Notes: generated by a model from the sequence alone, not told the origin. Positions 7,717 to 30,227 are shown, numbered from the stretch's first letter. The stretch is 64,000 bases of DNA from Spirochaetales bacterium (GCA_007127335.1 SKZO01000010.1:35370-99369); one strand, 5' to 3'. Program-made: numbers and translations.

Positions 7717-7798
7717 GCGGTATACCTTCGATTGGGTGATGTACCAGAGCATACGTGATCGGTGTCAGGTCGATCCACGCATCCTGTCGTACATCAAT

Positions 7799-7830
7799 GC
7801 CACCACCGGGCCCGAAGGTCCGGTGGTGGC
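7799..7830 (-). promoter_or_regulatory. intercistronic RNA stem-loop between the binding-protein gene and the first permease gene
   Basis: The minus-strand RNA is GCCACCACCGG-A-CC-UUCG-GG-C-CCGGUGGUGGC. It forms an 11-bp perfect stem, an A/C mismatch, 2 more GC pairs and a C(UUCG)G tetraloop. No U-tract follows it. Confidence 0.6.
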
Positions 7831-7850
7831 TGGTGTCAATTCCTGATCTC

Positions 7851-16328: not shown

Positions 16329-16339
16329 GGCCCCTCCTT

Positions 16340-17554
16340 TCAGCCGACGAGATTCCCGTAGAACATGCCGGCCGCCGTTGAAAGGACGATGACCAGCATG
16401 ACGTAGGCGGCCGTCTTCCTGGATCCGAGCTCACCCCAGATCACCAGCAGCGACGGCAGCGATAGCGATGGGCCTGCGAGCAGTAAGGCCAGTGCCGGCC
16501 CCTGGTTCATCCCGGCGCCTAACAGCCCTTGCATGATGGGCACTTCGGTGAGGGTCGCGAAGTACATCAGGGTGCCGGCCGCGGAGGCGACGAGATTGCT
16601 TGCGAACGAGTTCGTTCCTACCAGACCCGCGATCCACTCTGCCGGAATGAGTGCTGTCTGTCCAGCACGCCCAAGCAGAAACCCCGCGACAAGCACCCCG
16701 GCGAAGAGGAGAGGCACGATCTGGACCGCGAAGTCACGGGTAGCGCGAACCCAGTCGCGGATCTCGGCGCGGGTGAACCAGCGCACGACTCCGTAGACGA
16801 GGAGCGCGGCCCATCCCGCGACGATCGCCCAACGCCACGCATACACTGCGTCCCACCAACCCACCGATCCTGCGCTGGGCGCCCAGTTCATGAACACAAG
16901 GATACCAACCATCGACGCCATGAGCAGGACTGTGTGTCCCGGGGCGTGCGACGCCTCATCGTCCGTGGCCCGGAACATCTGCGCATTGGTTGTTCGTTCC
17001 CGGTCTTCACGCAGGAAGAGGAGCTGCATCACCAGACCGGTCACAAAGGCGAAAAGCACCGCACCGACCGCCCGAGCGACGCCGAGCTGCAAGCCCAGCA
17101 CGCGGGCCGTGAGGATGATCGCGAGGATGTTGATCGCAGGGCCCGAATAGAGGAAGCTCACTGCCGGCCCGAGTCCCGCGCCTTTCTTGTAGATGCCCTT
17201 GAACAGGGGAAGTACCGTACACGAACAGACGGCAAGAACGGCGCCTGACACGGACGCGACGCTGTAGGCGACGAGTTTTGGGGCTTCCGGACCAAGATAC
17301 CTGATCACCGACTGTTGATTCAGAAACACGGTGATCGAACCGGCGATGAAGAAAGCCGGGATGAGGCAGAGCAGCACGTGCTCGCGGGCGTACTCACCGA
17401 GCATGAGCACCGCTTCGCTTACCGCCGCACGCACCCGCGGCTCCGACCACGGTGTGAGGACGACGAAGAGAAAGACGACCGCCATCACCGTGAGACGGCG
17501 GTTGCGCGGATCGCTCCGGAACCGAGCCGCGAGGCTCCCACCGTCACATCTCAC
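16340..17554 (-). CDS. ArsP-family ('predicted permease', two-repeat) membrane protein
   Basis: About 8-10 TM segments are present. The motifs AVCSCTVLPLF (vicinal CxC), GAGLGPAVSFLYSGPAINI and the C-terminal repeat GPALALLLAGPSLSLPS match the permease family that includes the methylarsenite efflux protein ArsP. GTG 17554 overlaps the upstream stop (GTGA). Confidence 0.8.
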   Translation of the reverse strand: MRCDGGSLAARFRSDPRNRRLTVMAVVFLFVVLTPWSEPRVRAAVSEAVLMLGEYAREHVLLCLIPAFFIAGSITVFLNQQSVIRYLGPEAPKLVAYSVASVSGAVLAVCSCTVLPLFKGIYKKGAGLGPAVSFLYSGPAINILAIILTARVLGLQLGVARAVGAVLFAFVTGLVMQLLFLREDRERTTNAQMFRATDDEASHAPGHTVLLMASMVGILVFMNWAPSAGSVGWWDAVYAWRWAIVAGWAALLVYGVVRWFTRAEIRDWVRATRDFAVQIVPLLFAGVLVAGFLLGRAGQTALIPAEWIAGLVGTNSFASNLVASAAGTLMYFATLTEVPIMQGLLGAGMNQGPALALLLAGPSLSLPSLLVIWGELGSRKTAAYVMLVIVLSTAAGMFYGNLVG

Positions 17555-17793
17555 GCTGAATACGCCTTGATACTCGCCTCGATCTCGTCCGCGGTGGAGA
17601 TCCTGCCCGAGTTCTGCACGATGCCGTCGATCGCGTACCCCGGTGTGCGCAGGACGCCCATTTCGACGATGCGGTCCATGTCCGTGACCTTCTCGATCTG
17701 CGCCTCGATCCCAAGGCGCGCGACGGCCTCACGCGCGTTCTTCTCGAGATTGCGGCAGTTCGGACACCCGGGTCCGAGAATCTGAATCGTCAT
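17551..17793 (-). CDS. small thioredoxin-fold protein ('redox-active disulfide protein 2' type)
   Basis: The start is refined to ATG 17793, with GGGAGG 4 nt upstream. MTIQILGPGCPNCRNLE carries the CxxC motif. The size is about 80 aa, and the protein type is classically paired with the permease above and ArsR. Confidence 0.85.
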   Translation of the reverse strand: MTIQILGPGCPNCRNLEKNAREAVARLGIEAQIEKVTDMDRIVEMGVLRTPGYAIDGIVQNSGRISTADEIEASIKAYSA

Positions 17794-17828
17794 GGTTCCT
17801 CCCATTTTGTGGTTATTTGGTTATATGC

Positions 17829-17857
17829 ACAATAACGAGAAGTTGCAAACCGGTCAA
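17829..17857 (-). promoter_or_regulatory. sigma70-type promoter of the thioredoxin/permease operon
   Basis: The minus strand reads TTGACC (17857..17852), a 17-nt spacer, then TATTGT (17834..17829). This lies about 36 nt upstream of ATG 17793. Confidence 0.5.
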
Positions 17858-17868
17858 CCGGCTCATCA

Positions 17869-17904
17869 TCTTGACCCGTGTCTTGACCCGTGTCTTGACC
17901 CGTC
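17869..17904. repeat. three tandem copies of a 12-mer (TCTTGACCCGTG x2, then TCTTGACCCGTC), each containing a -35-like TTGACC
   Basis: The copies were read directly at 17869-17880, 17881-17892 and 17893-17904. They lie in the divergent arsR/thioredoxin intergenic region. Confidence 0.9.
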
Positions 17905-17923
17905 GGGGCGTTATTGGCAATAT

Positions 17924-18274
17924 ATGCAAGGAATGCTCAACGAACAGGAACGACTCAGGGCCCAGGCGCGCGCCTCGATCCTGAAGGCACTCGCCCACCC
18001 GACGCGGGTCTACATCGTCGACCTCATCTCTCGCGAGGGCGCTCACTGCGTATGCGAGCTTACCGACCGGATTGGCGCGGACACTTCGACGGTGTCTCGA
18101 CATCTCTCGCTGCTCAGGAATGCCGGATTACTGTACGATCGCAAGGAGGGAACGACGGTCTACTACGATCTGACCTGCGACTGCATATCCGACTTCATGA
18201 ACGGTCTCGAGTCGGTGCTCCGCGCGCGGCACAAGCGAGAGCAGGCGGCCTTCGCGGCGTCCGTCGGGCAGTGA
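17924..18274 (+). CDS. arsR: ArsR/SmtB-family metalloregulator with CVC metalloid-binding motif
   Basis: It has the wHTH core ILKALAHPTRVYIVDLI...HCVCELT...STVSRHLSLLRNAGLL. The CVC resembles the ELCVCDL As(III) site of ArsR. The start is ATG 17924 or ATG 17933, and the upstream part of track ORF 17792 is rejected. Confidence 0.85.
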   Translation: MQGMLNEQERLRAQARASILKALAHPTRVYIVDLISREGAHCVCELTDRIGADTSTVSRHLSLLRNAGLLYDRKEGTTVYYDLTCDCISDFMNGLESVLRARHKREQAAFAASVGQ

Positions 18275-18284
18275 GCGCGAGCGC

Positions 18285-19130
18285 CTACTCAGTGCGTTCC
18301 GGGCGGTCTTCCGGTCCTGGTACCTGCGCCCGCGACTCAGTACGGTGGAGCGCAGCGGTACCTACTCTCACTCCGATCTTCGGTAGCGCGATCAGGAGCG
18401 GTACGCCGATCAGCGTGGCTGCCAGCGAGAAGACGGCCCGTTCGACCGGCGCGACGAAGGCGAGTCCTCGCCACATCGTCGCCGGCCAGTCGTACAGCAG
18501 GATACCCGCGAAGTTCGCGATTCCTGCGGAGGAGACGAACCCCGCGTAGGCGGCGAAGAAGACGCCCGTTGCCATGCGCGCGGCAGGAACCGCGCCGCTA
18601 TCGGTCCGGGTCGCGAGACGGCGCCAGACCAGTGCCCCCGCGGCCGTTGCCAGGAGTCCCGCCGTGTAGAAGATGAAGGGGAAGATCGCCGCATCAGTCC
18701 CGATCGGCGTGAGGAACCAGAGCCCGTAGCCACCGCCGATGATCGCCGCCGTGACGTACCATCGACCGCGCGTGATCAGTCCTACGGCCGCGGCGTTGAT
18801 AGTGCCAACGAGAAAGGTCGCGGGGCCGAGCCATGCCGTATGTGGCGCGATCAGTTGGGCGATGAACGATCCGACCGCGGCGCAGACAGCGCCGCCTACC
18901 GGGCCAAAGAGAACGCCGGCGAGCGGGACAAAGGCCACGCTGACGGTGAAGGTTCCGGAGATCCCGAGAATGGGGATCGTGGGCAGAAGGTTCCCGGTTG
19001 CGATGATGGCGGCCCAGACAGCGATCACCGCGGGGTGAATACCGGATCCGACGAAGACGGTCTCCTGCTCGTCATCCAGACCGGCCTCTGCATCCAGGCC
19101 GGGTTCGTTCTGCGAAGGGTTCACCCGCAT
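18285..19130 (-). CDS. polytopic membrane protein, candidate ECF-transporter S (substrate-capture) component of unknown specificity
   Basis: It has about 6-7 TM segments rich in Gly and Ala. It overlaps the ECF ATPase stop by 10 nt and is the last gene of the operon. I recognise no specific S-component family. Confidence 0.5.
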   Translation of the reverse strand: MRVNPSQNEPGLDAEAGLDDEQETVFVGSGIHPAVIAVWAAIIATGNLLPTIPILGISGTFTVSVAFVPLAGVLFGPVGGAVCAAVGSFIAQLIAPHTAWLGPATFLVGTINAAAVGLITRGRWYVTAAIIGGGYGLWFLTPIGTDAAIFPFIFYTAGLLATAAGALVWRRLATRTDSGAVPAARMATGVFFAAYAGFVSSAGIANFAGILLYDWPATMWRGLAFVAPVERAVFSLAATLIGVPLLIALPKIGVRVGTAALHRTESRAQVPGPEDRPERTE

Positions 19131-20722
19131 ATCTGCTCCTCGTCATACATGTCGTCTGCGAAGGCACCGGCGAGCTCATAGGGTGCCCCATGCGTCGTGA
19201 GCACACCGGCGGCCTCGAGCACGTCGGTCTGTTCCCGGGTGATCTCGCTGGTCGGCCCATCGGCCACGATGCGCCCTGCGTCCATGACGATCAGCCGCTC
19301 GGCGTACTCGCACAGGAGTCCCAGATCGTGGCCGATCGCGATGACCGTCCTGCCGGCATCCCGCAGGCTGCACGCGATCTCCATGACCCTGCGGCTGCCT
19401 TCGACGTCGTGACCTCGTGTTGGCTCATCGAGCAGGATGACAGCCGAGTCGAGCGCAAGCACCGAAGCGAACGCGACGAGCGATCGGTCGCTGCGTCCGA
19501 GTGCAAGAGGGTGTTCCTGTGCCTTATCGGGCAGCCCCACGATCTCAAGCGATCGTCCGACCCTGTCCTCTACCTCTGCCCGATCGAGTCCCTGGTTGAC
19601 CGGGCCGAATGCGACTTCTTTCCACACCGTGTCCGCGAACAGCTGATGGTCGGGATTCTGCTGGACGTAGCCCACCCGTCGCACCAGCTCGGAGGGGTCG
19701 AGCGTCCGCACCGGTCTGCCGGCAACCCGCACCTCTCCCGCGGCAGGCTCGAGGAGCCCGACGATCGCCTTGAACAGCGTCGTCTTTCCCGAACCGTTGC
19801 GACCCACGATTCCGGCGAACTCACCGGGGGCGAACCCGGCTGAAACATCGTCCACCGCAACCGTCCCGGGATACTCGCAGCGCAGCGCGTCGACATCAAT
19901 TCGGCATCGGTCGACCAGGGGGTCCGCGGCGACGGCGGCGGTCCGTCCGGAAGCCGCACCGCCGGCCCGACGGAAGAAGCGCGACGGATCTGGTCCCGCA
20001 AACACCCGCTCCGGCGTGTCGAATGCCGCGAGCCGGCCGGCCTCGAGCGCGAGGACCCGGTCCGCGTACGCCGATGCGAGCGCCATGTCATGCGTTGCGA
20101 CGATGACCGTCAGCTTGTACCGGAGCTTCAGACGGCACACGAGCTCCATGAGATGCCGCGATCCCTCCGCGTCAAGCTGGCTCGTCGCCTCATCGAACAC
20201 GAGGACGCGCGGCGTCATGGCGAGCAGGGACGCAATCGTGAGGCGCTGCTTCTGACCGCCGGACAGCGTGGCCGGTGCACGGTCTTCGAATCCACGCAGA
20301 CCGACGGCTCGGAGGGCCCGCGCCACCGAGGTCCGGATCGTGTCCGGTTCCATGCCAAGATTCTCTCCACCGAACGCCGCCTCGTCGAGCACCGTGCCGG
20401 CAAACAGTTGGGCGTCAGGATCCTCGAGGACGAGACCCACATGCCGCGCGAGCTCGGCGACCTGGTGCGATCGCGTATCCAGGCCATGGACACGGACCCT
20501 CCCCTTGAGCGCACCTCCCTCGAAATGGGGGACGATGCCGTTCAGACACTTGCAGAGCGTCGATTTCCCTGCGTCGTTCGGTCCAATGACAGCGACGAAC
20601 TCGCCGGGCAGAATCCGCAGGTTGATGTCCTGCAGGGCCCACCGGGGCGAGTCAGGGTAGCGGTACGAGAAACGGTGAAACGTCACTGCTGCAGCGACGT
20701 GGTGTTCGGGAACGGGCAGCAT
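19121..20722 (-). CDS. ECF transporter ATPase, fused double-NBD (EcfA-EcfA')
   Basis: Two ABC domains are present. Walker A motifs are GPNDAGKST and GRNGSGKTT, with signature LSGGQKQR and Walker B motifs VLVFDEATSQLD and ILLDEPTRGHD. Confidence 0.85.
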   Translation of the reverse strand: MLPVPEHHVAAAVTFHRFSYRYPDSPRWALQDINLRILPGEFVAVIGPNDAGKSTLCKCLNGIVPHFEGGALKGRVRVHGLDTRSHQVAELARHVGLVLEDPDAQLFAGTVLDEAAFGGENLGMEPDTIRTSVARALRAVGLRGFEDRAPATLSGGQKQRLTIASLLAMTPRVLVFDEATSQLDAEGSRHLMELVCRLKLRYKLTVIVATHDMALASAYADRVLALEAGRLAAFDTPERVFAGPDPSRFFRRAGGAASGRTAAVAADPLVDRCRIDVDALRCEYPGTVAVDDVSAGFAPGEFAGIVGRNGSGKTTLFKAIVGLLEPAAGEVRVAGRPVRTLDPSELVRRVGYVQQNPDHQLFADTVWKEVAFGPVNQGLDRAEVEDRVGRSLEIVGLPDKAQEHPLALGRSDRSLVAFASVLALDSAVILLDEPTRGHDVEGSRRVMEIACSLRDAGRTVIAIGHDLGLLCEYAERLIVMDAGRIVADGPTSEITREQTDVLEAAGVLTTHGAPYELAGAFADDMYDEEQICG

Positions 20723-20753
20723 TCAGACTCCTTATCCCAGGACGGCAAGCGAA

Positions 20754-21518
20754 TCACAGGACTCGGTCGACAGCAGCGAGAACGCCGAACAGGATCATCG
20801 CTGCCAGGAGAATCAACCCATCGAGCCGGCGGAACGAGAGGGTGTGGATCGACGTGCGCGCCGCACCCGATCCGAAGGCGCGCGACTGCATTGCCACGCT
20901 CATCAGTGTGGCCCGCCGCATCGAGGTCATGACCAGGGGGACCACGAGAGCAGGATATGCCCGAACCTTCTGAAGGAACCGCCCGCGGTCAAACGCCGAT
21001 GATCCCCGTAGCCGTTGCGCTGCGCTGATCGTCGCGAAATCCGCGCGAAGCACCGGTATCTGGTTGAGCGCCGTTGTTACGGTGTAGGCGGCCCTGTACG
21101 GCAACCCGAGGCGGGTGAGGGCGAGTACGATCCGGTCGATGCTCGTCCGTGACGTGAGGATGGGCACCGTGCAGGCGAGCACCAGGACCCTCAGACAGAG
21201 CATGAGCCCGAAGCCGATTCCTTCGAGCGTCACGGGAAGCGTGAGCAGACCGATCCGCGGCAGTTCCACCCGGACCGGCGTGTCGCCCGGGAAAAAGAAC
21301 GCCTGCGCCGTGATGATGAGCACGAAGACGACTCGAAGCGGCTTGATGCCGGCGAGCAGCTGGCCCCATTCGAGTCCCACCGCGCGCCACAGGAGCAATA
21401 CCACGGCAAACGCCGCCCCGATCGTCGCCGGATGTCGCAGCAGAAAACAGAGGGCGGACATCAGGATCACTACGGCGATTCGTACGCGGGGGTCTAGCCT
21501 CTCCATTCTGTACTCCAC
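20754..21518 (-). CDS. ECF transporter transmembrane (T) component, EcfT/CbiQ family
   Basis: It is a multi-TM protein whose C-terminal part carries ISAAQRLRG...MRRATLMSVAMQSRAFG, typical of CbiQ/EcfT coupling helices. Confidence 0.8.
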   Translation of the reverse strand: MEYRMERLDPRVRIAVVILMSALCFLLRHPATIGAAFAVVLLLWRAVGLEWGQLLAGIKPLRVVFVLIITAQAFFFPGDTPVRVELPRIGLLTLPVTLEGIGFGLMLCLRVLVLACTVPILTSRTSIDRIVLALTRLGLPYRAAYTVTTALNQIPVLRADFATISAAQRLRGSSAFDRGRFLQKVRAYPALVVPLVMTSMRRATLMSVAMQSRAFGSGAARTSIHTLSFRRLDGLILLAAMILFGVLAAVDRVL

Positions 21519-21548
21519 CTGTGGGCGCCTCGCCGGCGACCGGAGACA

Positions 21549-22565
21549 TCACGTCCTGGGAATCTCCCGCACGATCTCCGGCAGCACCTCGAAAAGGTCG
21601 CCCACGATCGCCACGTCTGCGAGCTGCATCAGCGGCGTATCGGGGTCCTTGTCGATCGCGATAATGTAGTCACACGACTGCATACCGACAAGGTGTTGAA
21701 TCTGTCCGGATATCCCGCACGCGACATAGACCATGGCCTGGACCGTCTGGCCTGTCTGACCAACCTGGTGGTTATACGGGACCCAGCCGGAATCGACCGC
21801 CGCACGACTCGCTCCAACCGCACCGTTGACGCGTTCTGCAAGGCGTTTCAGCAGCTGGAACCCTTCAGGCCCCTTGACGCCGCGGCCGCCGGCGATGATG
21901 AAGCGTGCGTCGGCAAGGTTGATCGCGTTTTCCGTGTCCTGGAAGATCTCAACCACCTTCTTGAGCGTCGACTTCTCGCTCTCGAGCAGTTGCTCTCTGA
22001 TTACACGGCCGGTCCGGCCCGTGTCCGCGGGAAGGGCATTCATGACGCGTGGGCGGACCGTTGCCATCTGCGGACGGTGGTTGGAACAACGTATCGTGGC
22101 CATGATGTTCCCGCCAAAGGCCGGCCGGGTCTGGAGAAGATCGCCGTTCTCGGGGTCGATCGAGAGACCCGTACAATCAGCCGTGAGCCCGCAGTTCGCC
22201 GCAACGGCCACTCGCGGAATGAGCGCGCGTCCTCGGGTTGTCGCGCCGCAGAGGACGATCTCCGGTTTGTGGGTGTCGACGAACCGTACGAGGACCGACG
22301 CCATGTCTTCGTCGACGAACTCGGCGAAACGCGGCTCATCGACAGCCAGGACAACATCGGCCCCGCCATGGAAGAGCGGTTCGATCTGCCCGTCCAATCC
22401 GTGACCCATCACCACACACCAGACTTCGCAGGCCCGGTCATTCGCGAGCGAACGCGCCGCGCCAAGAAGCTCGTACGTTACCTTCTGGATCTGCCCGCCG
22501 AGCACCTCGGCGACCACCCAGACGTTCCTGTACCCGGTCCGAGCCTCGTCAGTATTGGCTATCAT
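21549..22565 (-). CDS. etfA: electron transfer flavoprotein, alpha (large) subunit
   Basis: It has VWVVAEV...KVTYELLGAAR at the N-terminus. The C-terminal FAD-binding segment is IIAGGRGV...LGASRAAVDSGW....QVGQTGQTV.P.VY.ACGISG.IQH. There is no N-terminal ferredoxin domain. Confidence 0.85.
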   Translation of the reverse strand: MIANTDEARTGYRNVWVVAEVLGGQIQKVTYELLGAARSLANDRACEVWCVVMGHGLDGQIEPLFHGGADVVLAVDEPRFAEFVDEDMASVLVRFVDTHKPEIVLCGATTRGRALIPRVAVAANCGLTADCTGLSIDPENGDLLQTRPAFGGNIMATIRCSNHRPQMATVRPRVMNALPADTGRTGRVIREQLLESEKSTLKKVVEIFQDTENAINLADARFIIAGGRGVKGPEGFQLLKRLAERVNGAVGASRAAVDSGWVPYNHQVGQTGQTVQAMVYVACGISGQIQHLVGMQSCDYIIAIDKDPDTPLMQLADVAIVGDLFEVLPEIVREIPRT

Positions 22566-22593
22566 CTATGCTCCTTTCCTGATTCCGAATCGT

Positions 22594-23382
22594 CTAGAGA
22601 AGACCGCGCCGGCGCAACTCGCGTACGAGTGTTCCTGCGCTCTCTGAAGGCGAGCCGTTGAGCACAAGCGTCTCCGCTCCGCGCGGCGGCGGCGGGTTGG
22701 TCTTGACGACACGGGTTGGAGAGCCGTTGAGCCCAATCAGCTCCTCGTCGGCGCCGATGTCCTCGGGCGACCAGACCGGTATATCGAGTTTCTGGGCTGC
22801 AAGCCGACCCTTCAACGTAGGAACTCGCGGCTGGTTGATATCCTTGACCACGGTGAGCACAGCGGGAAGCGTGATCTCGCAGAGGTCCCACCCATCCTCG
22901 TGCATCCGTCGTGTAGTGATCACTCCGTTGTTAGACTCAGGAATCTCCATGACATAGGTTGCCTGAGCCCATCCGAGCTGGGCGGCGATTCCGGGCCCGA
23001 CCTGCGCCGTGTCGCCATCGATCGCCTGTTTGCCGCACAACACCAGGTCCACGCCACCGATCTTCTCAATCGCCTTCGCCAGCGCATAGCTCGTGGCCCA
23101 GGTATCAGACCCTCCGAAGGCACGTCCGCTGAGCAGTATTCCGGCGTCTGCCCCCACGGAGATCGCCTCGCGCAGGACGGTCTCGGCCCGCGGCGGTCCC
23201 ATCGTCATCACGATGACTTCGCCGCCGCTCTTCTCCTTTATCTTCACCGCTTCTTCCACCGCATAGGTGTCGAACGGATTCATGACCGCCTTGATTCCCT
23301 CCCGGACGATTCGCTTCGTCTCCGGGTCTATCTTCGCGTCATGGGTGCCGGGCACCTGTTTGACGCAGACTACCATCTTCAT
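22594..23382 (-). CDS. etfB: electron transfer flavoprotein, beta (small) subunit
   Basis: The start is refined to ATG 23382 (MKMVVCVKQVP, the canonical EtfB N-terminus), forming an ATGA overlap with the MetF-like stop. It contains CGKQAIDGDTAQVGP (motif at 22993..23019). Confidence 0.85.
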   Translation of the reverse strand: MKMVVCVKQVPGTHDAKIDPETKRIVREGIKAVMNPFDTYAVEEAVKIKEKSGGEVIVMTMGPPRAETVLREAISVGADAGILLSGRAFGGSDTWATSYALAKAIEKIGGVDLVLCGKQAIDGDTAQVGPGIAAQLGWAQATYVMEIPESNNGVITTRRMHEDGWDLCEITLPAVLTVVKDINQPRVPTLKGRLAAQKLDIPVWSPEDIGADEELIGLNGSPTRVVKTNPPPPRGAETLVLNGSPSESAGTLVRELRRRGLL

Positions 23383-24206
23383 GAGGCCACCTCTTCGGAC
23401 TGAACCTGCTCCCAGAGCCCGGTGATCCGGTCGTACTGTTTCTTGAACCCGAGCAGCGACAGGTAGACACCGCAACGGGGGTAGTTCCGGTGCAGGTTCT
23501 TGAGCGTCTCAACCGGATTGAACGACTCGGGGTCCTCGGCAACCTCGTACCCTACGGCCTCGGACAGAAGCCCGATATTCTTGCTCATCCACGCTTCAAC
23601 GGCTACCGGTATGTCCGGGTACTTCTCGAGAAGCTTGTCCACGACCGGATGGTTGTCGATCACCGGCTGCGTGATGATGAACGATGCGCCGGCGTCGATC
23701 TTTCGTTCCATCTTTGCGAACTCGTGTTCCTCCGGCTCGTAGGGGTTGAAGGCCACTCCAAGCTCAAAGACGCCCGGATACTCGCGCCGAATATAGCGCA
23801 GCAGCTCAACTGACGTCACAGACTCGACGTCCGTCGCGCCCACGTCGGCCGGAGTGAGCTTGGGCAGGCGGTCGGATCCGTCACCCGAGATCACGAGCAA
23901 CTGCTCGATCTTCATCTCCTTGCACGACTCGAGAATCCGGTCGAGGTCATCCTTCGTGTGAAAGGTGTTCAGGTGGATCATCACCAGGCCGGGTTTGGGC
24001 TCGAGCTCGAGCTCTTCGATCATCTCCGTTCCCTGGAACGCGAGATTGCCCATCGCGTTGTCGGTAATACAGCAGCAGTAGCCGCTGTCCATCACGCGGT
24101 TGAACTTGTTCGTGAACCGCTCGAGGTCAGCTTCGAGCTTCTCCGAATCCTGCTTTGGAGGCAGGACTTCCACGTGGTAGATCCTGTTTTCGATGTGGTG
24201 CTGCAT
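23379..24206 (-). CDS. divergent methylenetetrahydrofolate reductase (MetF)-like protein
   Basis: The N-terminus YHVEVLPPK resembles the MetF (F)EFFPPK start, and the layout and length (275 aa) are TIM-barrel-like. It sits between fhs and etfB. The assignment is by pattern and context only. Confidence 0.55.
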   Translation of the reverse strand: MQHHIENRIYHVEVLPPKQDSEKLEADLERFTNKFNRVMDSGYCCCITDNAMGNLAFQGTEMIEELELEPKPGLVMIHLNTFHTKDDLDRILESCKEMKIEQLLVISGDGSDRLPKLTPADVGATDVESVTSVELLRYIRREYPGVFELGVAFNPYEPEEHEFAKMERKIDAGASFIITQPVIDNHPVVDKLLEKYPDIPVAVEAWMSKNIGLLSEAVGYEVAEDPESFNPVETLKNLHRNYPRCGVYLSLLGFKKQYDRITGLWEQVQSEEVAS

Positions 24207-24221
24207 ATCCTTCCTCTCTGC

Positions 24222-25988
24222 TTAGAAGAGTCCGCGGACCTTACCGGTCGCTGTGTCTACGTCGATGTTGCGGAATGCGGGATCAGACGACGTGCCCGGC
24301 ATGAGCTTGACACCGCCGGCAACCGGCACGAGAAAACCCGCACCGCGGTACGTCAGGATGTCGCTGATCGGCAGCGTCCAGCCCTTCGGGCGGCCCTTGA
24401 GCGTCGGGTCATGGCTCAGACTCAAGTGGGTTTTCACCATACAGGTCCCAAGCTCTTTCGCCTCCGGATCCTCAGCGATTGCCGCGAGCTTCTCCTCGGC
24501 CTCCGGCGTGTAACTCACCCCGTCGGCGCCGTATACTTCGCGCGCAAGCAGCGCGATGCGCTCCTTGATGGGCATGTCGAGCGAGTAGAGGTAGTCGAAG
24601 GTTGGCTTCTCCTCGCACGCCTCTACCACGGCCTCAGCCAGCTCGACCGCACCTTCACCGCCCTGCTCCCAGTGCTTGCTCAGAGCGACTCTCGCTCCTG
24701 CGGCCTCTGCCGCACGTCTGATCGCCGCCACCTCATCATCGGAGTCGGTGTAGAAGTGGTTGATACAGACAACCGGCTGTATGCCGCTCTTCTTCACCGT
24801 TTCAATGTGCGCGATGAGATTCTCCGTGCCCTGCTCCACGAGGCCGACATTGGCCTTCGTGTACTCTTCGGCGAGCTCCTTGCCCGGCACGACGCGCGGG
24901 CCGCCTCCGTGCATCTTGAGCGCACGGACCGTACACACGATTACCGCGGCGTTCGGGACCAGGCCGGAGAAGCGGCATTTGAGATTCCAGAACTTCTCGA
25001 AGCCTATGTCGGCACCGAAACCGCTCTCGGTCACGTGGTAGTCGGAGAGCTTGAGAGCGAGGCGATCGGCTACAATCGACGATTGGCCGATAGCGATGTT
25101 CGCGAAAGGACCGGCATGCACGAAAACCGGTTGACCTTCAATGGTCTGCATCAGGTTCGGGTTGATCGCCTTGTGCATCAGCGCAGTCATCGCGCCGCCC
25201 ACCTCGAGGTCGTCGGCTGATACCGGCTTCCCTGACTTGCTGTAGCCAACGACCATTTTCCCGAGACGAGCACGCAAATCCGCGAGGTCCCTGGCGACGG
25301 CGAGGATCGCCATGACTTCCGATGAGACGGTGATCTGAAACCCGCTCTTCATCATGAAGCCGTCCATCTTTCCGCCGATGCCGATGATGATCTCCCGCAG
25401 CGCCTGCGCCGAAAAGTCGATCGTCCAGCCCATCGCCGGGTTGCGAGGATCTATGTTGAGTCGCTCGAGCCCGCGTCGTGCGAGGAACTTGTCGCCATAG
25501 TTGAACTCGTGCTGGATCCGCGAGGTGAGGGCGACCATCGCGAGGTTGTGCGCGTTGTTGATCGCGTCGATGTCTCCGGTCAACCCGAGGCTGAACTCGC
25601 TCAGGGGTATGCACTGCGCGAGCCCTCCGCCGGCTGCACTGCCCTTGATGTTGAATGTTGGACCGCCTGACGGTTGCCGAATTCCTCCGGTTACCCGTTT
25701 GCCGATCTTGCCGAGCCCTTCGACGAGACCCATCGTCGTCGTGGTCTTGCCCTCACCCAGGGGCGTCGGCGTTATCGCGGTGACATCAATGTACTTGCCA
25801 TCGGGCTGGTTCTTCAGCCGATCGAGCACGCTGATGTAGTCGACCTTGCCGATATAATGGCCGTATGGATGAAGCTCGTCCTCAGTGATTCCGAGCTCGT
25901 CGGCTATGACGCCAATCCTCTTCATGTCAGCAGCGGCTGCGTCAGCGATCTCCCAGTCCTTCATCTTCTTCGGGTCCAAGGTGGCCAT
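24222..25988 (-). CDS. fhs: formate--tetrahydrofolate ligase
   Basis: The start is refined to ATG 25988, with AAGGAG 5 nt upstream. Canonical FTHFS segments are present: [41 protein letters not shown] and EGAMTALM-like. Confidence 0.95.
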
Positions 25989-25998
25989 ACGTACTCCT

Positions 25999-26898
25999 TT
26001 AGCTCCGCCTGCACGAGGCAAGCGTGTTTTTCATCAGCATTGCGATCGTCATCGGGCCGACGCCGCCGGGTACCGGCGTGATCGAACCGGCGATCTCTTT
26101 CGCCGCGTCGAAGTCCACGTCGCCGCGAAGGATCGCGATCTTCTTCCCCGTCTTCCTGCTGACCTTCTCGCCGACGCGGTTCACGCCCACATCGATGACA
26201 CAGGCGCCGGGCTTGATCCACTCCGGCTTCACGAGTCCGGGCACCCCGGCGGCGACGATCAGAATATCCGCGCGTCGGCAGTGCGACGCGAGGTCTCTCG
26301 TTCTCGTATGCACGACCGTCACCGTCGCGTTCGCCCCGGGGCCCTTCTGAAGCAGCATATTCGCGATCGGCTTCCCGACGATGTTCGACCGTCCAACGAC
26401 GACGACCTCAGCGCCCTCGATCTCAACGCCCGACCGTACGATGAGCTCCTGGATTCCTGCCGGCGTGCACGGCGGGAAGAGCACCTCGTCGCCTCCGATC
26501 ATCAGCCTTCCGACGTTGACGGGATGGAACCCGTCGACGTCCTTGTCCGGATCGATCGCATAGATGACCTTCTTCTCGTCGATGTGGTCCGGCAGCGGGA
26601 GCTGCACGAGAATCCCATGGATCGATTCATCCCTGTTGTACCGTTCGACGAGCGCGAGGAGGTCCGCCTCGCTGATCCCGGGGTCCACGTTCTCCTGCAC
26701 CTCGTTGAACCCGAGATCGAGCGCGGTGCGTACCTTGAGCGTCACGTAGGAGACCGACGCGGGGTTCTCGCCCACGAGTATCGTCACGAGTCCGGGAACC
26801 GTTCCGGTCTTGTCCCGCATCGTCGCCACATCGCTCCTGATCTCGTCGAGAATCGTCTTCGACACCGCACGGCCGTCGATGATCTGCGCGGACATCAC
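25999..26898 (-). CDS. folD: bifunctional methylene-THF dehydrogenase / methenyl-THF cyclohydrolase
   Basis: Canonical FolD segments are present: [45 protein letters not shown] and [12 protein letters not shown]. The start GTG 26898 or ATG 26895 overlaps the upstream stop. Confidence 0.95.
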
Positions 26899-27911
26899 GC
26901 CCCCCTGATCGCGGAGATGAACTGCATTCCGAACTCGTCCTTGCCGAGCAGGACGTCTCGGGCAAGCTGGTTCACCTCCTTCGAGAAATCGATCCCCGCG
27001 AGCACCTCATCGTTGATCTGCATTGGATCGACGATGCCTCCATCACAGCCCGCTTCCTGACACAGCCTGGCAAAGACACGGTTGAGCACGCTTCGCTTGG
27101 GAAAGCCATGGGAGACATTGGAGAGCCCTGGCGCGAAGTGCACTTCGTCTCCGTACTTCTCACGGAGCGTTCTGATGGTCTCGATGACACACGGGCCGTT
27201 CTGGACGTCGACAGAGACCGGGAAGACGAGTGGGTCGAGGAAGGTGTCCGAAAGCGAGATGCCGGCCTCCTGCAGCTTCGGCACGAGCTCGTAGATGTTC
27301 TCGAGGCGCTCTTCCCTGGTCTGGGGCATGCTCGTCGCGCCCATCGCGCTTGCGATGACGCATGCCTTCGCCTTTGCCGCAATGGGGACGAAGGCGACGC
27401 GCTCGAGCGACACGGAGTTCACCAGCGGCTTCCCCTTTGACGGGTCGCACGCGGCGAGTCCGGTCTCGAGGATCTCCGGATCCGAGGAATCAATGCTCAG
27501 CGGGATGGATGTAGCCGATTGAACGACCTGTGCCGCCCACTCGATCGCCCGTTTCTTCTCGTCCTGATCGACGCTGAACTCGTCCACGTTGATGTCGAGA
27601 AACCAGGCGCCGGAGGCCTCCTGTTCGCGCGCCATCGCCTGCACGTAGCGCCGGCCGGCTTCCTTCTCGTCGTTCGATCCGTAGAGACCCTGCTGAACCG
27701 CCACGGCGACGTGACGCACCTTGCCGTCCTGGAAATCCTGTCCCTCAGCGACTTCGGCCGGGATGGGCAGATACTGCTTCTTGCCGTCTTCCCTGAACAC
27801 GAGGGCGGATCTCCCGTCATCGAGCTGCTCGACGTACTTGCCCTTCGTCAGACGTACGCGTGTGCAATGGATGTTTTCTCCGACAATGATAAACGAACCC
27901 TTCGACGCCAT
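26895..27911 (-). CDS. pterin-binding methyltransferase, methyl-THF:corrinoid methyltransferase (AcsE/MeTr) family
   Basis: It is collinear with MeTr landmarks: VGENIH, FLDINV, SIDSS...ETGL, VNSVS, LDPLVFP, GLSNVSHG...R..LNR.F and GCDGGIVDP. GGAGG lies 5 nt upstream of ATG 27911. Confidence 0.8.
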   Translation of the reverse strand: MASKGSFIIVGENIHCTRVRLTKGKYVEQLDDGRSALVFREDGKKQYLPIPAEVAEGQDFQDGKVRHVAVAVQQGLYGSNDEKEAGRRYVQAMAREQEASGAWFLDINVDEFSVDQDEKKRAIEWAAQVVQSATSIPLSIDSSDPEILETGLAACDPSKGKPLVNSVSLERVAFVPIAAKAKACVIASAMGATSMPQTREERLENIYELVPKLQEAGISLSDTFLDPLVFPVSVDVQNGPCVIETIRTLREKYGDEVHFAPGLSNVSHGFPKRSVLNRVFARLCQEAGCDGGIVDPMQINDEVLAGIDFSKEVNQLARDVLLGKDEFGMQFISAIRGA

Positions 27912-27965
27912 AGGAACCTCCGGCTGGTGTATCCGCTCATACTACGGCGAACGCGACGGTACGTC

Positions 27966-27978
27966 TTGAATTATTCAA
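27966..27978. promoter_or_regulatory. perfect 6-1-6 palindrome TTGAAT-T-ATTCAA upstream of the C1 operon (candidate operator)
   Basis: It was read directly. It lies in the 100-bp AT-richer gap between the beta-helix gene stop (28012) and the MeTr start (27911). Confidence 0.3.
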
Positions 27979-28011
27979 CGAAGGATAAAAGAATTGTGCG
28001 ACGTCACCGAC

Positions 28012-30147
28012 TCAGGTTCTCGTTCCCCAGGCCGCGATCGGACGAAAACCAAGCCGCAGCGCCGGGGAGTTCTCGCCCACACGAAAATCCCCGGCCTCCG
28101 CATCACGGAAGAGTGGATCGGCCACGATCGACCGTCCGCCCTTGCCGATCTTCGCCAGCTCCGCGAGCGCAGCGTGCGCGGCATCCGGCTCGTCGACATC
28201 CCACAGGAGGTTGTCGTCCATGGAAACCTCCCGAAGGAAGCCGATCGGGTCGTCAAGCACCCAGAAGGGCTCCTTCTGCGGCCGCGGCGAGCGGACGAGG
28301 ATGTTGCGTCTCATTCCGGTCCCGTAACACGGGCCACGATGGCGTGCGCAGAGGTAGCCGTACTGTCGCGGACCGTAGCAGTCGACGATGATGTTGTTCT
28401 CGATCTGGTTGATGTTCTTGGTCAGGATCCCGGCGCCGCAGATACGATGAACGACGTTCTCCGCGACCAGATTGTGGAACTGCTCGTCGTCAAGCCTGAT
28501 CCCGGAAACCGTGCCCTCTCCCGAGATGTCGTGGACGTAGTTTCGTGCGATGACGTTCCCCACGCCCGCGCCGGAGACGTAAATGCCGTTGCCGTCTCCG
28601 AGCAACTCCATCGCGTCGTGCACTTCGTTGTGTTCGATCGTGTTGTACCGCGCGTGCCGGAAACCGAGCAGGACCGGTTGCTCGAGCGGCGCGTCGCTCA
28701 GCTCCTCGCGGCGGACGGTACGCGCCCCTTCGCGCACTCGGTGACCGCCGGGGTCCAGCACCGACCGCCTTGGCCCGCTGACGACGATCGCGCAGTACGG
28801 CGTGTGGTGGATGAGGTTGTCACAGATTACGTTGTGGCCGCTCTGACAGACGAAGATGCCGGCCGCGTGCCACCAGAGCCGTCCGACGTGATGGATGTGG
28901 TTCGACGCAACACGATTGTGGTGATTCTCGTCGCGCGTTCCGGGTCCGTACCCGATCAGCGAGACGCCGACTCCGCCTATGCCGGAGATCTCATTCGCGA
29001 CGATCTCGTTGTCCACGGCGTGCAGGTCGAGCCGAATGCCCGAGCCCCCCGAGTCGACGAGCCTGCAGTTCGCGACTCGAACTCCCCGAGACCCCCGCAA
29101 TCTCACGAGGGCACTCGCGGAGTCCTCCTCCTCCCAGTCGTGTTGCACCGACCGACGCCCCGCACCAAACTGATAGCGATCGCCGTGCATGAGTGTGAGA
29201 CCGTCGATCACGATATCACGCACGGGCTCGCCCCGCTCGAGATCCCCTTCGAACCGGAGCATCTCGGTCAGCACCGGCGCAACCACGTCGGTCGGCGGCG
29301 TCCGTCCGTCGTTGCTGCGGGGCCAGAGGTAGACGCTTCCGCTCTCCGTGTCGCTGACCCAGCGTCCGGGAGCATCGAGGTAGTCACAGACATTCTCAAT
29401 GCGGTAGAACCGTTTGATGTGTGCAGGCCCGTACGCCGTGGTTATCGGGTATGTCGCGGGGAGCGTCGTTCTCGCGACGCGCCTGTCCTCATCCACGGAC
29501 TCCAGCCCCAGGTAGTTCACCGTCCAGGGGTTGCGCGGCGTGAGAAACAGCTCGACATCCGGCATGGTGCGCCACCGTCGGATCTCGCCCTCGCGGTATC
29601 TCAGCTCCCGGTAGACCGGATGAGCATCCAGGTACGTCGTCGGTTCCTCACCCGGCGGAATATCGGGGGCCACCGGCTCGGTATCCTCCCTCGCGCTCTG
29701 GAATCGAGGCGAATGGGCACGCTCGAGCAGCCCCTCACCGTCGAACAGCGCCTTGATCCCGACAGGTCGGCCCTGGCGTCGGGGCAGTGAGGCCACCCAC
29801 ACGTGCCCGAGTGCGTTCGCGGGCATACCTTCCGGCATGTCGGCTGCCGTAACGAGCCTCCATCCGGACAGCGGAACCCCTCCCGAGAGAACCGGCGTTT
29901 CGCCGGGGTATGCCGCATATCGTATTCTGCGCCCCGGTGCCGGGGAATCGTCCGGGCCCCAGACGATCGCGGTCTCCACGCGATAGACGCCTCCGCGAAG
30001 GTATACGGTGAGGCTTCCGTCGTAGCCGCCGGCCCGCAGCCGGCGTGCGGCTTGCCGGGCAGCGTCGAGCCCCGGTAGCGGGTCGGCCGCGTCCCCCGTA
30101 CCGTTCGCTCGTCCGGCGGGCGAGACGTAGAGTGTCAGCGACTTCAT
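28012..30147 (-). CDS. right-handed parallel beta-helix repeat protein (pectate-lyase fold; glycan-active enzyme candidate)
   Basis: The start is refined to ATG 30147 (MKSLTLYVSP), with GAAGGGG upstream. It contains repeated beta-helix turns such as NHIHHVGRLWWHAAGIFV, GHNVICDNLIHH, GNVIARNYVHDISGEG and NLVAENVVHRICGAGIL. No obvious signal peptide is present. Confidence 0.75.
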   Translation of the reverse strand: MKSLTLYVSPAGRANGTGDAADPLPGLDAARQAARRLRAGGYDGSLTVYLRGGVYRVETAIVWGPDDSPAPGRRIRYAAYPGETPVLSGGVPLSGWRLVTAADMPEGMPANALGHVWVASLPRRQGRPVGIKALFDGEGLLERAHSPRFQSAREDTEPVAPDIPPGEEPTTYLDAHPVYRELRYREGEIRRWRTMPDVELFLTPRNPWTVNYLGLESVDEDRRVARTTLPATYPITTAYGPAHIKRFYRIENVCDYLDAPGRWVSDTESGSVYLWPRSNDGRTPPTDVVAPVLTEMLRFEGDLERGEPVRDIVIDGLTLMHGDRYQFGAGRRSVQHDWEEEDSASALVRLRGSRGVRVANCRLVDSGGSGIRLDLHAVDNEIVANEISGIGGVGVSLIGYGPGTRDENHHNRVASNHIHHVGRLWWHAAGIFVCQSGHNVICDNLIHHTPYCAIVVSGPRRSVLDPGGHRVREGARTVRREELSDAPLEQPVLLGFRHARYNTIEHNEVHDAMELLGDGNGIYVSGAGVGNVIARNYVHDISGEGTVSGIRLDDEQFHNLVAENVVHRICGAGILTKNINQIENNIIVDCYGPRQYGYLCARHRGPCYGTGMRRNILVRSPRPQKEPFWVLDDPIGFLREVSMDDNLLWDVDEPDAAHAALAELAKIGKGGRSIVADPLFRDAEAGDFRVGENSPALRLGFRPIAAWGTRT

Positions 30148-30227
30148 AGACGCCCCTTCGTCCGGGATACTACCCCCCGTGGGGTAATCCTTCAACCATA
30201 ACGTCCGCCGCGCCGTCCGCCGCGCCC

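Follow-up and report, generated by a model that had tools for sequence, protein, structure and literature searches.

A MetF-like protein encoded with bifurcating-type EtfBA in a spirochete C1 operon: a candidate electron-transferring-flavoprotein-linked methylenetetrahydrofolate reductase

A nine-gene operon in a 64,000-nt stretch of DNA from a Spirochaetales bacterium (GCA_007127335.1 SKZO01000010.1:35370-99369), here called the window, pairs a gene for a MetF-like protein, a relative of methylenetetrahydrofolate reductase (MTHFR), with genes for EtfB and EtfA, the two subunits of an electron-transferring flavoprotein (ETF). All coordinates below are positions in this whole stretch unless a related locus is named. 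The same pairing recurs across several phyla, and the MetF-like protein and EtfBA very probably work together as an MTHFR system, presumably as a complex. An ETF-dependent MTHFR has been postulated for anaerobic C1 metabolism since about 2010 and, to our knowledge, has never been located. The explanation that best fits the material, to which we assign a probability of roughly 0.55, is that the operon encodes a reversible cassette connecting methyl-tetrahydrofolate (methyl-THF) and formate, built around an ETF-coupled MTHFR and running mainly in the oxidative direction.

In anaerobic C1 metabolism no redox step is more electropositive than the methylene-/methyl-THF step, which is hence regarded as an important site of energy conservation (PMC8515935). 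Energy coupling and NAD+-linked methyl-THF oxidation are unsettled for several acetogens, methylotrophic fermenters and syntrophic acetate oxidizers. Coupling of an MTHFR through EtfAB has been proposed, but Clostridium ljungdahlii has no etfAB beside metF (PMC8515935). An MTHFR beside bifurcating-type EtfBA in about 290 species of anaerobes makes that proposal directly testable.

The MetF-like protein and its EtfBA partner

The core of the operon consists of three genes:

23379..24206, minus strand: MetF-like MTHFR-fold protein, 275 aa (PF02219, 52 bits against a gathering score of 24)
22594..23382, minus strand: EtfB, bifurcating-type small ETF subunit (ETF domain in Pfam)
21549..22565, minus strand: EtfA, large ETF subunit (ETF and ETF_alpha domains in Pfam)

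Against TIGR00676, the equivalog model for canonical MetF, the MetF-like protein scores 40.9 bits and does not reach the cut-off of 293.7. Its homologues are about 265 aa long and are about 70% identical between Spirochaetota, Clostridia and Atribacterota. When 1.84 billion proteins were searched with it, 132 cluster representatives (50% identity) were returned at E<=1e-3, and canonical MetFs surfaced only near E 1e-6. By sequence, the protein thus belongs to a compact, isolated and strongly conserved sub-family of MTHFRs. The original prediction had called it MetF-like, and its standing as a genuine MTHFR-fold relative was borne out by structure prediction and profile comparison. The AlphaFold2 model has a predicted local distance difference test (pLDDT) score of 88.9, and its top 23 Foldseek matches in the PDB are all MTHFRs, with template-modeling scores of 0.57-0.73. 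An hhalign comparison of the family with canonical MetFs gave a probability of 99.8% (E 3.5e-28), and the invariant YHVEvLPPK, ISGDGS and IITQP segments of the family align with SFE.FPP, LRGD and ITQ of the canonical enzymes. The catalytic Glu, Asp and Gln of E. coli MetF are E28, D120 and Q183; with residue roles carried over from that enzyme, the equivalent positions are kept throughout the MetF-like family.

The 17th fold match of the model is Cthe_2304 of C. thermocellum (PDB 3ijd), an uncharacterized MTHFR-fold protein crystallized with two molecules of 5-methyl-THF. Kinship with this protein was considered and rejected, since the two are 12% identical and the relationship is not detected by sequence. 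Cthe_2304 is a distinct, more distant MTHFR-like protein, and it hints at further unexplored MTHFR-like families in anaerobes.

The features of EtfB and EtfA point to the bifurcating class. The best PDB matches of EtfB are five bifurcating ETFs (197-252 bits), compared with about 108 bits for human ETF. Those of EtfA are CarE, Thermotoga maritima EtfA, the C. difficile and A. fermentans EtfA proteins and LctC (242-318 bits), compared with 153 bits for human ETF. No non-bifurcating ETF scored higher than 108 bits with EtfB or 153 bits with EtfA. Among the five structurally characterized bifurcating ETFs that were compared (CarDE, T. maritima EtfAB, C. difficile Etf, A. fermentans Etf and LctBC), the closest relatives are CarD for EtfB (252 bits) and CarE for EtfA (318 bits). 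EtfB carries an exact DGDTAQVGP at residues 121-129. This sequence has been reported to be the recognition motif for the bifurcating FAD (b-FAD) and to be lacking in non-bifurcating ETFs (PMC9232219). It is present in 75 of 76 EtfB proteins encoded with the MetF-like gene, which argues that the second FAD is under selection. The alignment of EtfA begins at residue 67 of CarE, so the N-terminal ferredoxin domain is absent. On the basis of the motif and the nearest solved relatives, the EtfBA of the window is classed as bifurcating-type (group 2).

A shared function is also supported by gene order. The MetF-like gene was found in 293 species in a scan of one genome per species, and gene neighbors were counted in the 80 best loci, where loci "with room" are those whose contig is long enough downstream. 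In 72 of 73 loci with room, the gene immediately after the MetF-like gene is that for EtfB; for EtfA next in line, the count is 64 of 65. Spirochaetota, Clostridia, Limnochordia, Erysipelotrichaceae, Atribacterota and Lentisphaerales are all represented among these loci, making the MetF-ETF link far stronger than first claimed. More distant relatives of the MetF-like protein (32-41% identity) lie on contigs of just 1.6-3.8 kb that are uninformative on an ETF neighborhood. In C. thermosuccinogenes, a carrier named by the sequence records, the MetF-like-EtfB-EtfA triad stands alone; we take this species to be in culture. Elsewhere the triad has company: among 31 well-flanked loci, 26 encode a MeTr-like pterin-binding methyltransferase within about 5 kb of the MetF-like gene, 18 the formate-THF ligase Fhs and 6 FolD. 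The order in Caldicoprobacterales is MetF-like, EtfB, EtfA, MeTr, FocA, Fhs, and the cassette also occurs in metagenome-assembled genomes (MAGs) of termite-gut Treponema. MetF-like plus EtfBA is therefore the conserved unit; a pterin-binding methyltransferase usually accompanies it, and Fhs and a formate channel often do.

Related loci that carry the cassette or homologues are labeled here with L-numbers. The closest are from Spirochaetales and Spirochaetaceae MAGs, in which the MetF-like protein is 96% and 91% identical to that of the window and the gene order is the same. Isolate names of the relatives start with "CSSed", which we take to denote soda-lake sediment from Cock Soda Lake; the window is likewise assigned to a soda-lake spirochete. 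L005 has all nine genes, L004 has the same order until its contig ends at Fhs, L007 runs from FolD through the S component of the energy-coupling factor (ECF) transporter, and L008 from MeTr through the transporter's EcfT. The order shared by these four loci exceeds chance. Since ECF genes are present in just 4 of the 80 loci, the full nine-gene order is lineage-specific. What is conserved among relatives is therefore the unit of MeTr-like, MetF-like and EtfBA, often with Fhs; the nine-gene arrangement is confined to the spirochete lineage.

Proposed redox chemistry and comparison with known systems

The methylene-/methyl-THF couple lies at -200 mV (PMC8515935), and it is the position of the lactate/pyruvate couple, at -190 mV, that makes EtfAB confurcate rather than bifurcate (PMC9232219). 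In the proposed mechanism, the MetF-like protein would exchange the electrons of methyl- and methylene-THF with EtfBA, and neither directly with NAD(P)H nor via MetV. By analogy with the lactate dehydrogenase-EtfAB (Ldh-EtfAB) system, the reaction would be

methyl-THF + 2 NAD+ + reduced ferredoxin <-> methylene-THF + 2 NADH + oxidized ferredoxin

An estimate from standard potentials places this reaction within a few kJ/mol of equilibrium, and it should therefore be reversible. Ferredoxin-coupled bi- or confurcation by MetF-like/EtfBA stands at even odds or slightly less. We give slightly less than an even chance to the fuller proposal that MetF-like-EtfBA is a flavin-based bifurcating or confurcating methylene-THF reductase, the postulated ETF-dependent MTHFR, and that it represents a new class of ETF partner. 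The reaction would then be NADH + ferredoxin + methylene-THF <-> NAD+ + reduced ferredoxin + methyl-THF. That proposal would include horizontal spread through at least four phyla, and a role in non-acetogenic fermenters that oxidize methyl groups to formate with a net gain of ATP.

Two observations weigh against this chemistry. TYGA is a flavin-binding motif of E. coli MetF, and the canonical flavin-binding motifs are partly kept in the MetF-like protein (T48, H78, GD) and partly changed, with TYGA replaced by TDNA; flavin binding by the MetF-like protein is something we infer. In addition, ferredoxin coupling does not follow from close similarity to bifurcating ETFs, given that the ETF of C. 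propionicum is highly related to bifurcating ETFs yet non-bifurcating (PMC9232219). An alternative mechanism follows this precedent: EtfBA would simply relay electrons between NADH and a MetF-like flavoprotein, with no ferredoxin, as in acryloyl-CoA reductase-ETF of C. propionicum. EtfBA would then in effect supply the NADH site that is missing from a trimmed MetF. This alternative concerns mechanism only and is independent of direction. Acryloyl-CoA reductase ETF subunits are indeed among the NCBIfam matches of EtfBA (227 and 299 bits, both under cut-off), the C. propionicum ETF lies near bifurcating ETFs and does not bifurcate (PMC9232219), and the reduction of methylene-THF by NADH is exergonic without any coupling. 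However, a simple relay does not sit well with retention of the b-FAD motif in all but one of the EtfBs of the cassette. Moreover, transfer of electrons from methyl-THF to NAD+ is endergonic, so a driving partner is needed in the oxidative direction, the one favored by the methyltransferase neighborhoods. We consider the simple relay rather unlikely.

The closest parallel for the confurcating mechanism is Ldh-EtfAB (LctBCD) of Acetobacterium woodii, which likewise combines a bifurcating-type EtfAB containing DGDTAQVGP with an adjacent oxidoreductase gene (PMC9232219). The substrate couples are also alike (-190 to -200 mV), and in Ldh-EtfAB NAD+ is reduced only if reduced ferredoxin is co-oxidized. 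The partners differ, however: an FAD/FMN-dependent lactate dehydrogenase in A. woodii and, in the window, a predicted TIM-barrel MTHFR-fold protein. LctC docks ferredoxin via an N-terminal ferredoxin domain, which the EtfA of the window lacks. Bcd-EtfAB and CarCDE follow the same gene logic of oxidoreductase plus etfB plus etfA, and CarD and CarE are the nearest solved relatives of EtfB and EtfA. In those systems, by contrast, the partners have the acyl-CoA dehydrogenase fold, act on high-potential enoyl-CoA couples and support bifurcation only, whereas the partner proposed here is an MTHFR acting on a mid-potential couple.

The known MTHFR types are the E. coli-type MetF, MetFV (2S), RnfC2-MetFV (3S), MetFV-HdrABC-MvhD (6S), the NuoEFG-linked "X type" and the flavin-free mycobacterial enzyme. 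The MetF-like protein has in common with them its fold, its catalytic Glu/Asp/Gln positions and, presumably, its pair of substrates. Unlike them, it forms a compact clade of its own and is encoded beside bifurcating-type EtfBA, with no adjacent MetV, Hdr, RnfC or NuoEFG. In the window its gene is flanked by those for Fhs and EtfB, and Pfam finds no MetV domain in any of the nine proteins of the operon; the same is true of relatives with listed genes. A classification of MTHFR types published in 2021 includes no ETF-linked type (PMC8515935), and a full-text literature search with partial coverage of subscription journals found no published MTHFR-ETF gene pair or complex. If the proposal is correct, MTHFRs would gain a sixth type and ETFs a new class of partner, partial Wood-Ljungdahl gene sets in MAGs would be read differently, and a widespread fermentative route would be recognized for oxidizing methoxyl and N-methyl groups to formate.

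Two further systems share the logic of moving methyl groups onto THF. In LigM-MetF-LigH of Sphingobium sp. SYK-6, demethylation onto THF is likewise followed by oxidation of methyl-THF via an MTHFR to the formyl level, and the SYK-6 MTHFR (7xg9, 7xlf) is among the fold matches of the MetF-like model. The SYK-6 system is aerobic, its demethylase LigM is a GcvT-family enzyme with no need for a corrinoid, and its MetF is canonical. The cassette described here, in contrast, has a pterin-binding methyltransferase of the corrinoid type as its methyl donor enzyme, together with an ETF-linked reductase. Three-component corrinoid systems (MtgABC/MttB-type systems and O-demethylases) consist of a substrate-specific methyltransferase I (MT-I), a corrinoid protein and a methyltransferase II (MT-II), with an activating enzyme in addition, and the MeTr-like protein of the window resembles an MT-II (4o0q, 83 bits). 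Relatives have MttB or URO-D candidates for MT-I, corrinoid proteins and the activase RACo by the cassette, whereas the window has the MT-II-like gene only. These systems feed methyl-THF to the Wood-Ljungdahl pathway; here the methyl group would enter a dedicated ETF-coupled module for oxidation or reduction.

The operon, its neighborhoods and the direction of flux

The nine consecutive open reading frames (ORFs) of the operon are all on the minus strand and span 18285-27911. In transcript order they encode MeTr-like, FolD, Fhs, MetF-like, EtfB, EtfA, EcfT, a two-NBD (nucleotide-binding domain) EcfA and an S component. The original prediction had given these genes, their identities and their common strand, all of which were confirmed by the ORF listing and by Pfam and NCBIfam profile searches; its range of junctions, from a 10-nt overlap to a 31-nt gap, held when re-measured. 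The junctions are as follows:

MeTr-like/FolD: TGATG, in which the FolD ATG start overlaps the MeTr-like stop codon by 1 nt (4-nt overlap with a GTG start)
FolD/Fhs: 10-nt gap, with AAGGAG upstream of Fhs
Fhs/MetF-like: 15-nt gap
MetF-like/EtfB: ATGA, 4-nt overlap of the EtfB start with the MetF-like stop
EtfB/EtfA: 28-nt gap
EtfA/EcfT: 30-nt gap (42 nt with an ATG start)
EcfT/EcfA: 31-nt gap
EcfA/S component: 10-nt overlap of the S start with the EcfA stop

A consensus scan of 17700-28400 found no excess of promoter- or terminator-like sites over shuffled sequence and none within the intergenic gaps. With tight junctions and no internal signal above chance, the sequence supports the single operon originally proposed, and the nine genes are read as one transcription unit.

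The first three genes of the transcript encode enzymes of folate C1 metabolism:

26895..27911, minus strand: MeTr-like pterin-binding methyltransferase, 338 aa (Pfam Pterin_bind, 73.9 bits)
25999..26895, minus strand: FolD, bifunctional methylene-THF dehydrogenase/methenyl-THF cyclohydrolase (both Pfam domains; NF010765, 543 bits, cut-off 501)
24222..25988, minus strand: Fhs, formate-THF ligase, long form of about 588 aa (PF01268, 764 bits; NF010032, 1076 bits, cut-off 938)

The MeTr-like protein falls under the cut-offs of both AcsE-type NCBIfam models (189.5 bits against 259, and 98.6 against 370). Its best solved relatives are the acetogen MeTr structures 2yci and 1f6y, a D. hafniense methyltransferase (4o0q, deposited as "dihydropteroate synthase DHPS") that we take to be the MT-II of an O-demethylase, and the pterin modules of MetH. 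The alignment to 2yci and 1f6y includes its GLSNVS segment, with the methyl-THF-binding Asn. Compared with the MeTr/MT-II proteins of 262-272 aa, it carries about 65 extra residues inserted behind the first barrel strand (residues ~20-85), an insertion common to the 338-340-aa orthologues of spirochetes and Lentisphaerales. Orthologues at 60-68% identity adjoin the MetF-like gene in spirochete and Lentisphaerales loci. From its sequence, the MeTr-like protein is probably a methylcorrinoid:THF methyltransferase, that is, an MT-II.

In the favored explanation, the cassette would interconvert corrinoid-bound methyl groups and formate on THF. Corrinoid methyltransferase systems encoded elsewhere in the genome would take methyl groups from methylated substrates, the MeTr-like protein, as MT-II, would pass them to THF, MetF-like/EtfBA and then FolD would oxidize methyl-THF, and Fhs would release formate with formation of ATP. 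That the physiological direction is oxidative we consider a somewhat better than even proposition. The case for it rests on the neighborhoods of the cassette in relatives. Unbiased clustering of all neighboring ORFs recovered FocA in 16 loci, corrinoid proteins in 10, RACo in 9, PocR regulators in 7, two types of URO-D methyltransferase in 7 and 5, CobW in 5 and PF02574 proteins in 5. A FocA formate channel is near the cassette in at least 16 loci, corrinoid-protein and/or RACo genes in at least 14, and URO-D family methyltransferases in about 12. The fullest example is the Atribacteria locus L025, which encodes, in a row, PocR/AraC, a TRAP transporter, MttB, a corrinoid protein, MetF-like, EtfB, EtfA, MeTr, Fhs and RACo. 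As judged from sequence families, these recurrent neighbors make up corrinoid-dependent demethylases in which the MeTr-like protein would be the MT-II. MttB or URO-D methyltransferases, corrinoid proteins, RACo and PocR next to the cassette favor the catabolic direction and bear out, in relatives, the demethylation logic of the original prediction.

The same loci contain several further features. The mttB gene of L025, from an Atribacteria single-cell genome, is an uninterrupted 478-aa ORF (7464-8900) within which Rfam reports a match to PYLIS_3 at 8424-8523, around codon 320. PYLIS_3 is a model of the pyrrolysine insertion element of mttB, and the ORF has no in-frame stop; its product is likely a non-pyrrolysine homologue that retains coding-sequence similarity. 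In L068 (2742-4373) and six other Clostridia loci, a 543-aa URO-D methyltransferase with a C-terminal thioredoxin_3 domain is encoded between Fhs and the MetF-like gene. The CobW genes encode GTPases (for example, L077 7449-8387). A cobalamin riboswitch lies between a PocR/AraC gene and a corrinoid-protein plus HcyMT-family pair at L006 6675-6793 and L011 10177-10353. Its position in these two loci, ahead of genes for a B12-dependent system, is unusual. Together with the PYLIS-like match inside the L025 mttB, these are the only relevant Rfam matches.

Other observations weigh against a mainly oxidative cassette. The window lacks most of the machinery that the explanation calls for: Pfam searches of the scanned ORFs and tblastn probes found no corrinoid protein, MT-I, activase (RACo), CODH/ACS (CO dehydrogenase/acetyl-CoA synthase) or formate dehydrogenase in the 64 kb, and no formate channel is present there. 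The original prediction had noted the absence of a corrinoid protein, substrate methyltransferase, CODH/ACS and formate dehydrogenase, and this holds for the scanned ORFs and the tblastn probes. Because those genes are absent from the 64 kb, the entry and exit points of the pathway are taken here from other organisms. Given that a corrinoid protein, MT-I and activase are found beside the cassette in relatives, the demethylase system may be split across this genome. A second group of observations points to methionine. A gene of the homocysteine S-methyltransferase family (HcyMT) lies beside the cassette in several spirochete loci; in L006 and L011 it is paired with a corrinoid-protein gene downstream of the cobalamin riboswitch, and in L072 it is near genes for S-adenosylhomocysteine (AdoHcy) hydrolase and an S-adenosylmethionine (SAM)-dependent methyltransferase. 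MetN-like ATPases neighbor the cassette in four loci. An HcyMT-family protein, a corrinoid protein and the MeTr-like protein would make up a split methionine synthase, and flux would then run from formate to methyl groups. Finally, co-occurrence of the ECF genes with the cassette is restricted to a few close relatives (see below).

The methionine-related genes are the basis of a reductive, anabolic alternative. Formate, from pyruvate formate-lyase or uptake, would be converted by Fhs, FolD and MetF-like/EtfBA to methyl-THF, with bifurcation recovering energy as reduced ferredoxin. MeTr-like, a corrinoid protein and an HcyMT would act as a split cobalamin-dependent methionine synthase that feeds methionine and SAM, for example to meet the methyl demand of osmolyte synthesis in a soda lake. 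Consistent with this, L006 and L011 combine a PF02574 gene, corrinoid protein, RACo and cobalamin riboswitch by the cassette; L063, L072 and L073 have one or two PF02574 genes nearby, with AdoHcy hydrolase and SAM-dependent methyltransferase genes in L072; MetN-like ATPases adjoin the cassette in the four loci mentioned above; the lone triad of C. thermosuccinogenes looks like a housekeeping arrangement; and a near-equilibrium reaction makes the reductive direction feasible. Control by methionine is where this alternative fares worst. A SAM or T-box riboswitch linking the cassette to methionine was sought and rejected, with none found by Rfam in the window or ahead of the cassette in 16 related loci; for the SAM riboswitch, none was found anywhere in the window or those loci. 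The only two T-box matches (L084, L028) are several kb upstream of the MetF-like gene and ahead of other genes, the one in L084 preceding Phe-tRNA synthetase genes and the one in L028 known from its position only. L072, from a soda-lake relative, also encodes, a few kb from the cassette, a separate 635-aa YitJ-type fusion of PF02574 with a canonical MTHFR domain (Pfam), which clusters with proteins of two further loci. The ETF-linked enzyme is therefore not the only MTHFR of these soda-lake relatives, and it is the canonical fusion that lies by their SAM-cycle genes. Furthermore, MttB, URO-D methyltransferases, a TRAP transporter and PocR typically mark catabolic demethylases, a formate channel beside Fhs fits export at least as well as import, and no part of a methionine synthase is encoded within the window. 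Anabolic use is, on balance, unlikely.

Very unlikely, in our view, is a role as the methyl branch of the Wood-Ljungdahl pathway, in acetogenesis or in reversed form in syntrophic acetate oxidation. The MeTr-like protein would then be AcsE, MetF-like/EtfBA would be an energy-coupling MTHFR, and CODH/ACS and formate dehydrogenase would be encoded elsewhere in the genome. MeTr, FolD, Fhs and MetF are exactly the enzymes of the methyl branch, the nearest solved structures of the MeTr-like protein are acetogen MeTr, and the cassette occurs in the termite-gut Treponema MAGs and in Caldicoprobacterales. It was for acetogens in particular that a bifurcating MTHFR coupled to ETF had been put forward (PMC8515935), and a stable-isotope study flagged Caldicoprobacter-related bacteria as acetate oxidizers (PMC7334858). 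However, CODH/ACS, corrinoid iron-sulfur protein (CFeSP) and formate dehydrogenase were all absent from the 64 kb of the window and from the annotated flanks of L025, L027, L049, L084 and L086, and no CODH/ACS was found near the cassette in termite Treponema or the other loci inspected. The MeTr-like protein is also far under the AcsE equivalog cut-off (98.6 against 370). Most carriers of the cassette belong to what we take to be fermenter groups and not acetogens, which likewise counts against this role.

In L072, the region 14826-20779, convergent with the cassette, encodes a PF02574 homocysteine methyltransferase, the YitJ-type fusion, the SAM-dependent methyltransferase and AdoHcy hydrolase. 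From the gene content, this is a SAM-cycle cluster, possibly for osmolyte methylation.

The ECF transporter genes and the flanks of the operon

The last three genes of the operon encode an ECF transporter, which would import a small molecule, either a cofactor or a substrate:

20754..21518, minus strand: EcfT, transmembrane coupling component (PF02361 CbiQ, 85 bits)
19121..20722, minus strand: fused EcfA-EcfA' ATPase with two NBDs (TIGR04520, 401 bits, cut-off 315; TIGR04521, 383 bits, cut-off 330)
18285..19130, minus strand: ECF S component (PF07155, 31.2 bits, just over the gathering score of 26.7)

The EcfA protein has two ABC_tran stretches with two Walker A and two Walker B motifs. In the S component, a core of about 250 aa is preceded by some 30 disordered residues at the N terminus. 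It has no NCBIfam match and no sequence match to any PDB structure, and belongs to an uncharacterized family of about 250 aa found mostly in Treponema and other spirochetes. Its AlphaFold2 model (pLDDT 84.9) has ECF S components as all of its top 24 Foldseek matches, with weak E-values (0.01 or worse) and no clear preference among BioY, FolT, YkoE, RibU, ThiT and PanT. Rfam found no riboswitch ahead of the S component. Neither sequence nor fold points to a particular substrate of the transporter. As in the group I ECF transporters YkoEDC and CbrTUV, the T component, a fused A-A' and the S component are encoded in one operon and the S component has the six-helix ECF S fold; here, however, the S family is uncharacterized, with no named NCBIfam model, no sequence match to a solved S component and no riboswitch.

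The original prediction had treated the importer as a built-in part of the module. As a general statement this failed, in that only 4 of the 80 cassette loci contain ECF genes, each of them from a close spirochete relative, with EcfT orthologues found at L004, L005, L007 and L008 only. The transporter is thus an addition specific to this spirochete lineage. It is possible that the ECF genes are functionally unrelated passengers, captured 3' of etfA in one lineage and co-transcribed by adjacency alone. Their restriction to four loci is what would be expected of passengers, as is the presence of a Hydantoinase_A/MutL-like gene in the same slot in the sister soda-lake clade, and homologues of the S component occur elsewhere in unrelated-looking clusters. 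Against this, the linkage has outlasted divergence to 49-56% identity for EcfT and EcfA and 65% for the S component in L007 and L008, and the genes are separated by gaps of 30-31 nt with no terminator. The clusters in other phyla, moreover, again place S-family homologues beside MCH-type and pterin-binding C1 enzymes, suggesting that a tie to folate-dependent chemistry recurs. We regard a passenger role as quite unlikely.

The clusters in question are those of L088, L090 and L091, in other bacteria, where S-component homologues (44-58% identity) sit in a different recurring gene set. It comprises a GntR regulator, one or two MCH-family genes (methenyl-tetrahydromethanopterin cyclohydrolase-like), a pterin-binding protein, DAO and HcnABC/sarcosine-oxidase-like oxidoreductases, Amidohydro_1, Amidohydro_2, an M20 peptidase and an EcfT/A/A' set of its own. 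From its gene content, this apparently uncharacterized cluster seems to encode the breakdown of an N-methyl or N-heterocyclic compound, possibly a pterin or folate. The gene of the sister soda-lake clade encodes a 690-727-aa protein of the ASKHA type and directly follows etfA (L063 8048-10165, L072 12646-14715, L073 6454-8637); judging by its family, the protein may be an ATP-dependent activase.

Upstream of the first gene of the operon is a short spacer:

27912..28011, minus strand: upstream spacer, 100 nt, with a promoter-like TTCAAG-N20-TAGTAT and a GGAGG ribosome-binding site

TTCAAG...TAGTAT and a CACAATT sequence are kept in L005, which is 91% identical and has a different gene upstream. 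The promoter-like element was missed by the consensus scan, and its conservation is weak evidence for a promoter. The spacer also contains a perfect 13-bp palindrome, TTGAATAATTCAA, at 27966-27978. It was considered as an operator and rejected, since it is not conserved in L005. Similarly, the 727-aa beta-helix gene at 28012-30195 was rejected as a member of the operon and is placed outside the unit because its upstream position is not conserved in L005. Downstream of the operon is a divergent gene for an ArsR-family regulator (17792-18274, plus strand), which forms a separate small unit with a thioredoxin_3 gene and an ArsP_1-type permease gene on the minus strand (16340-17805). Elsewhere in the window, a membrane H+/Na+-translocating pyrophosphatase is encoded at 47932-50109 (PF03030, 828 bits), in keeping with an energy-limited anaerobic lifestyle.

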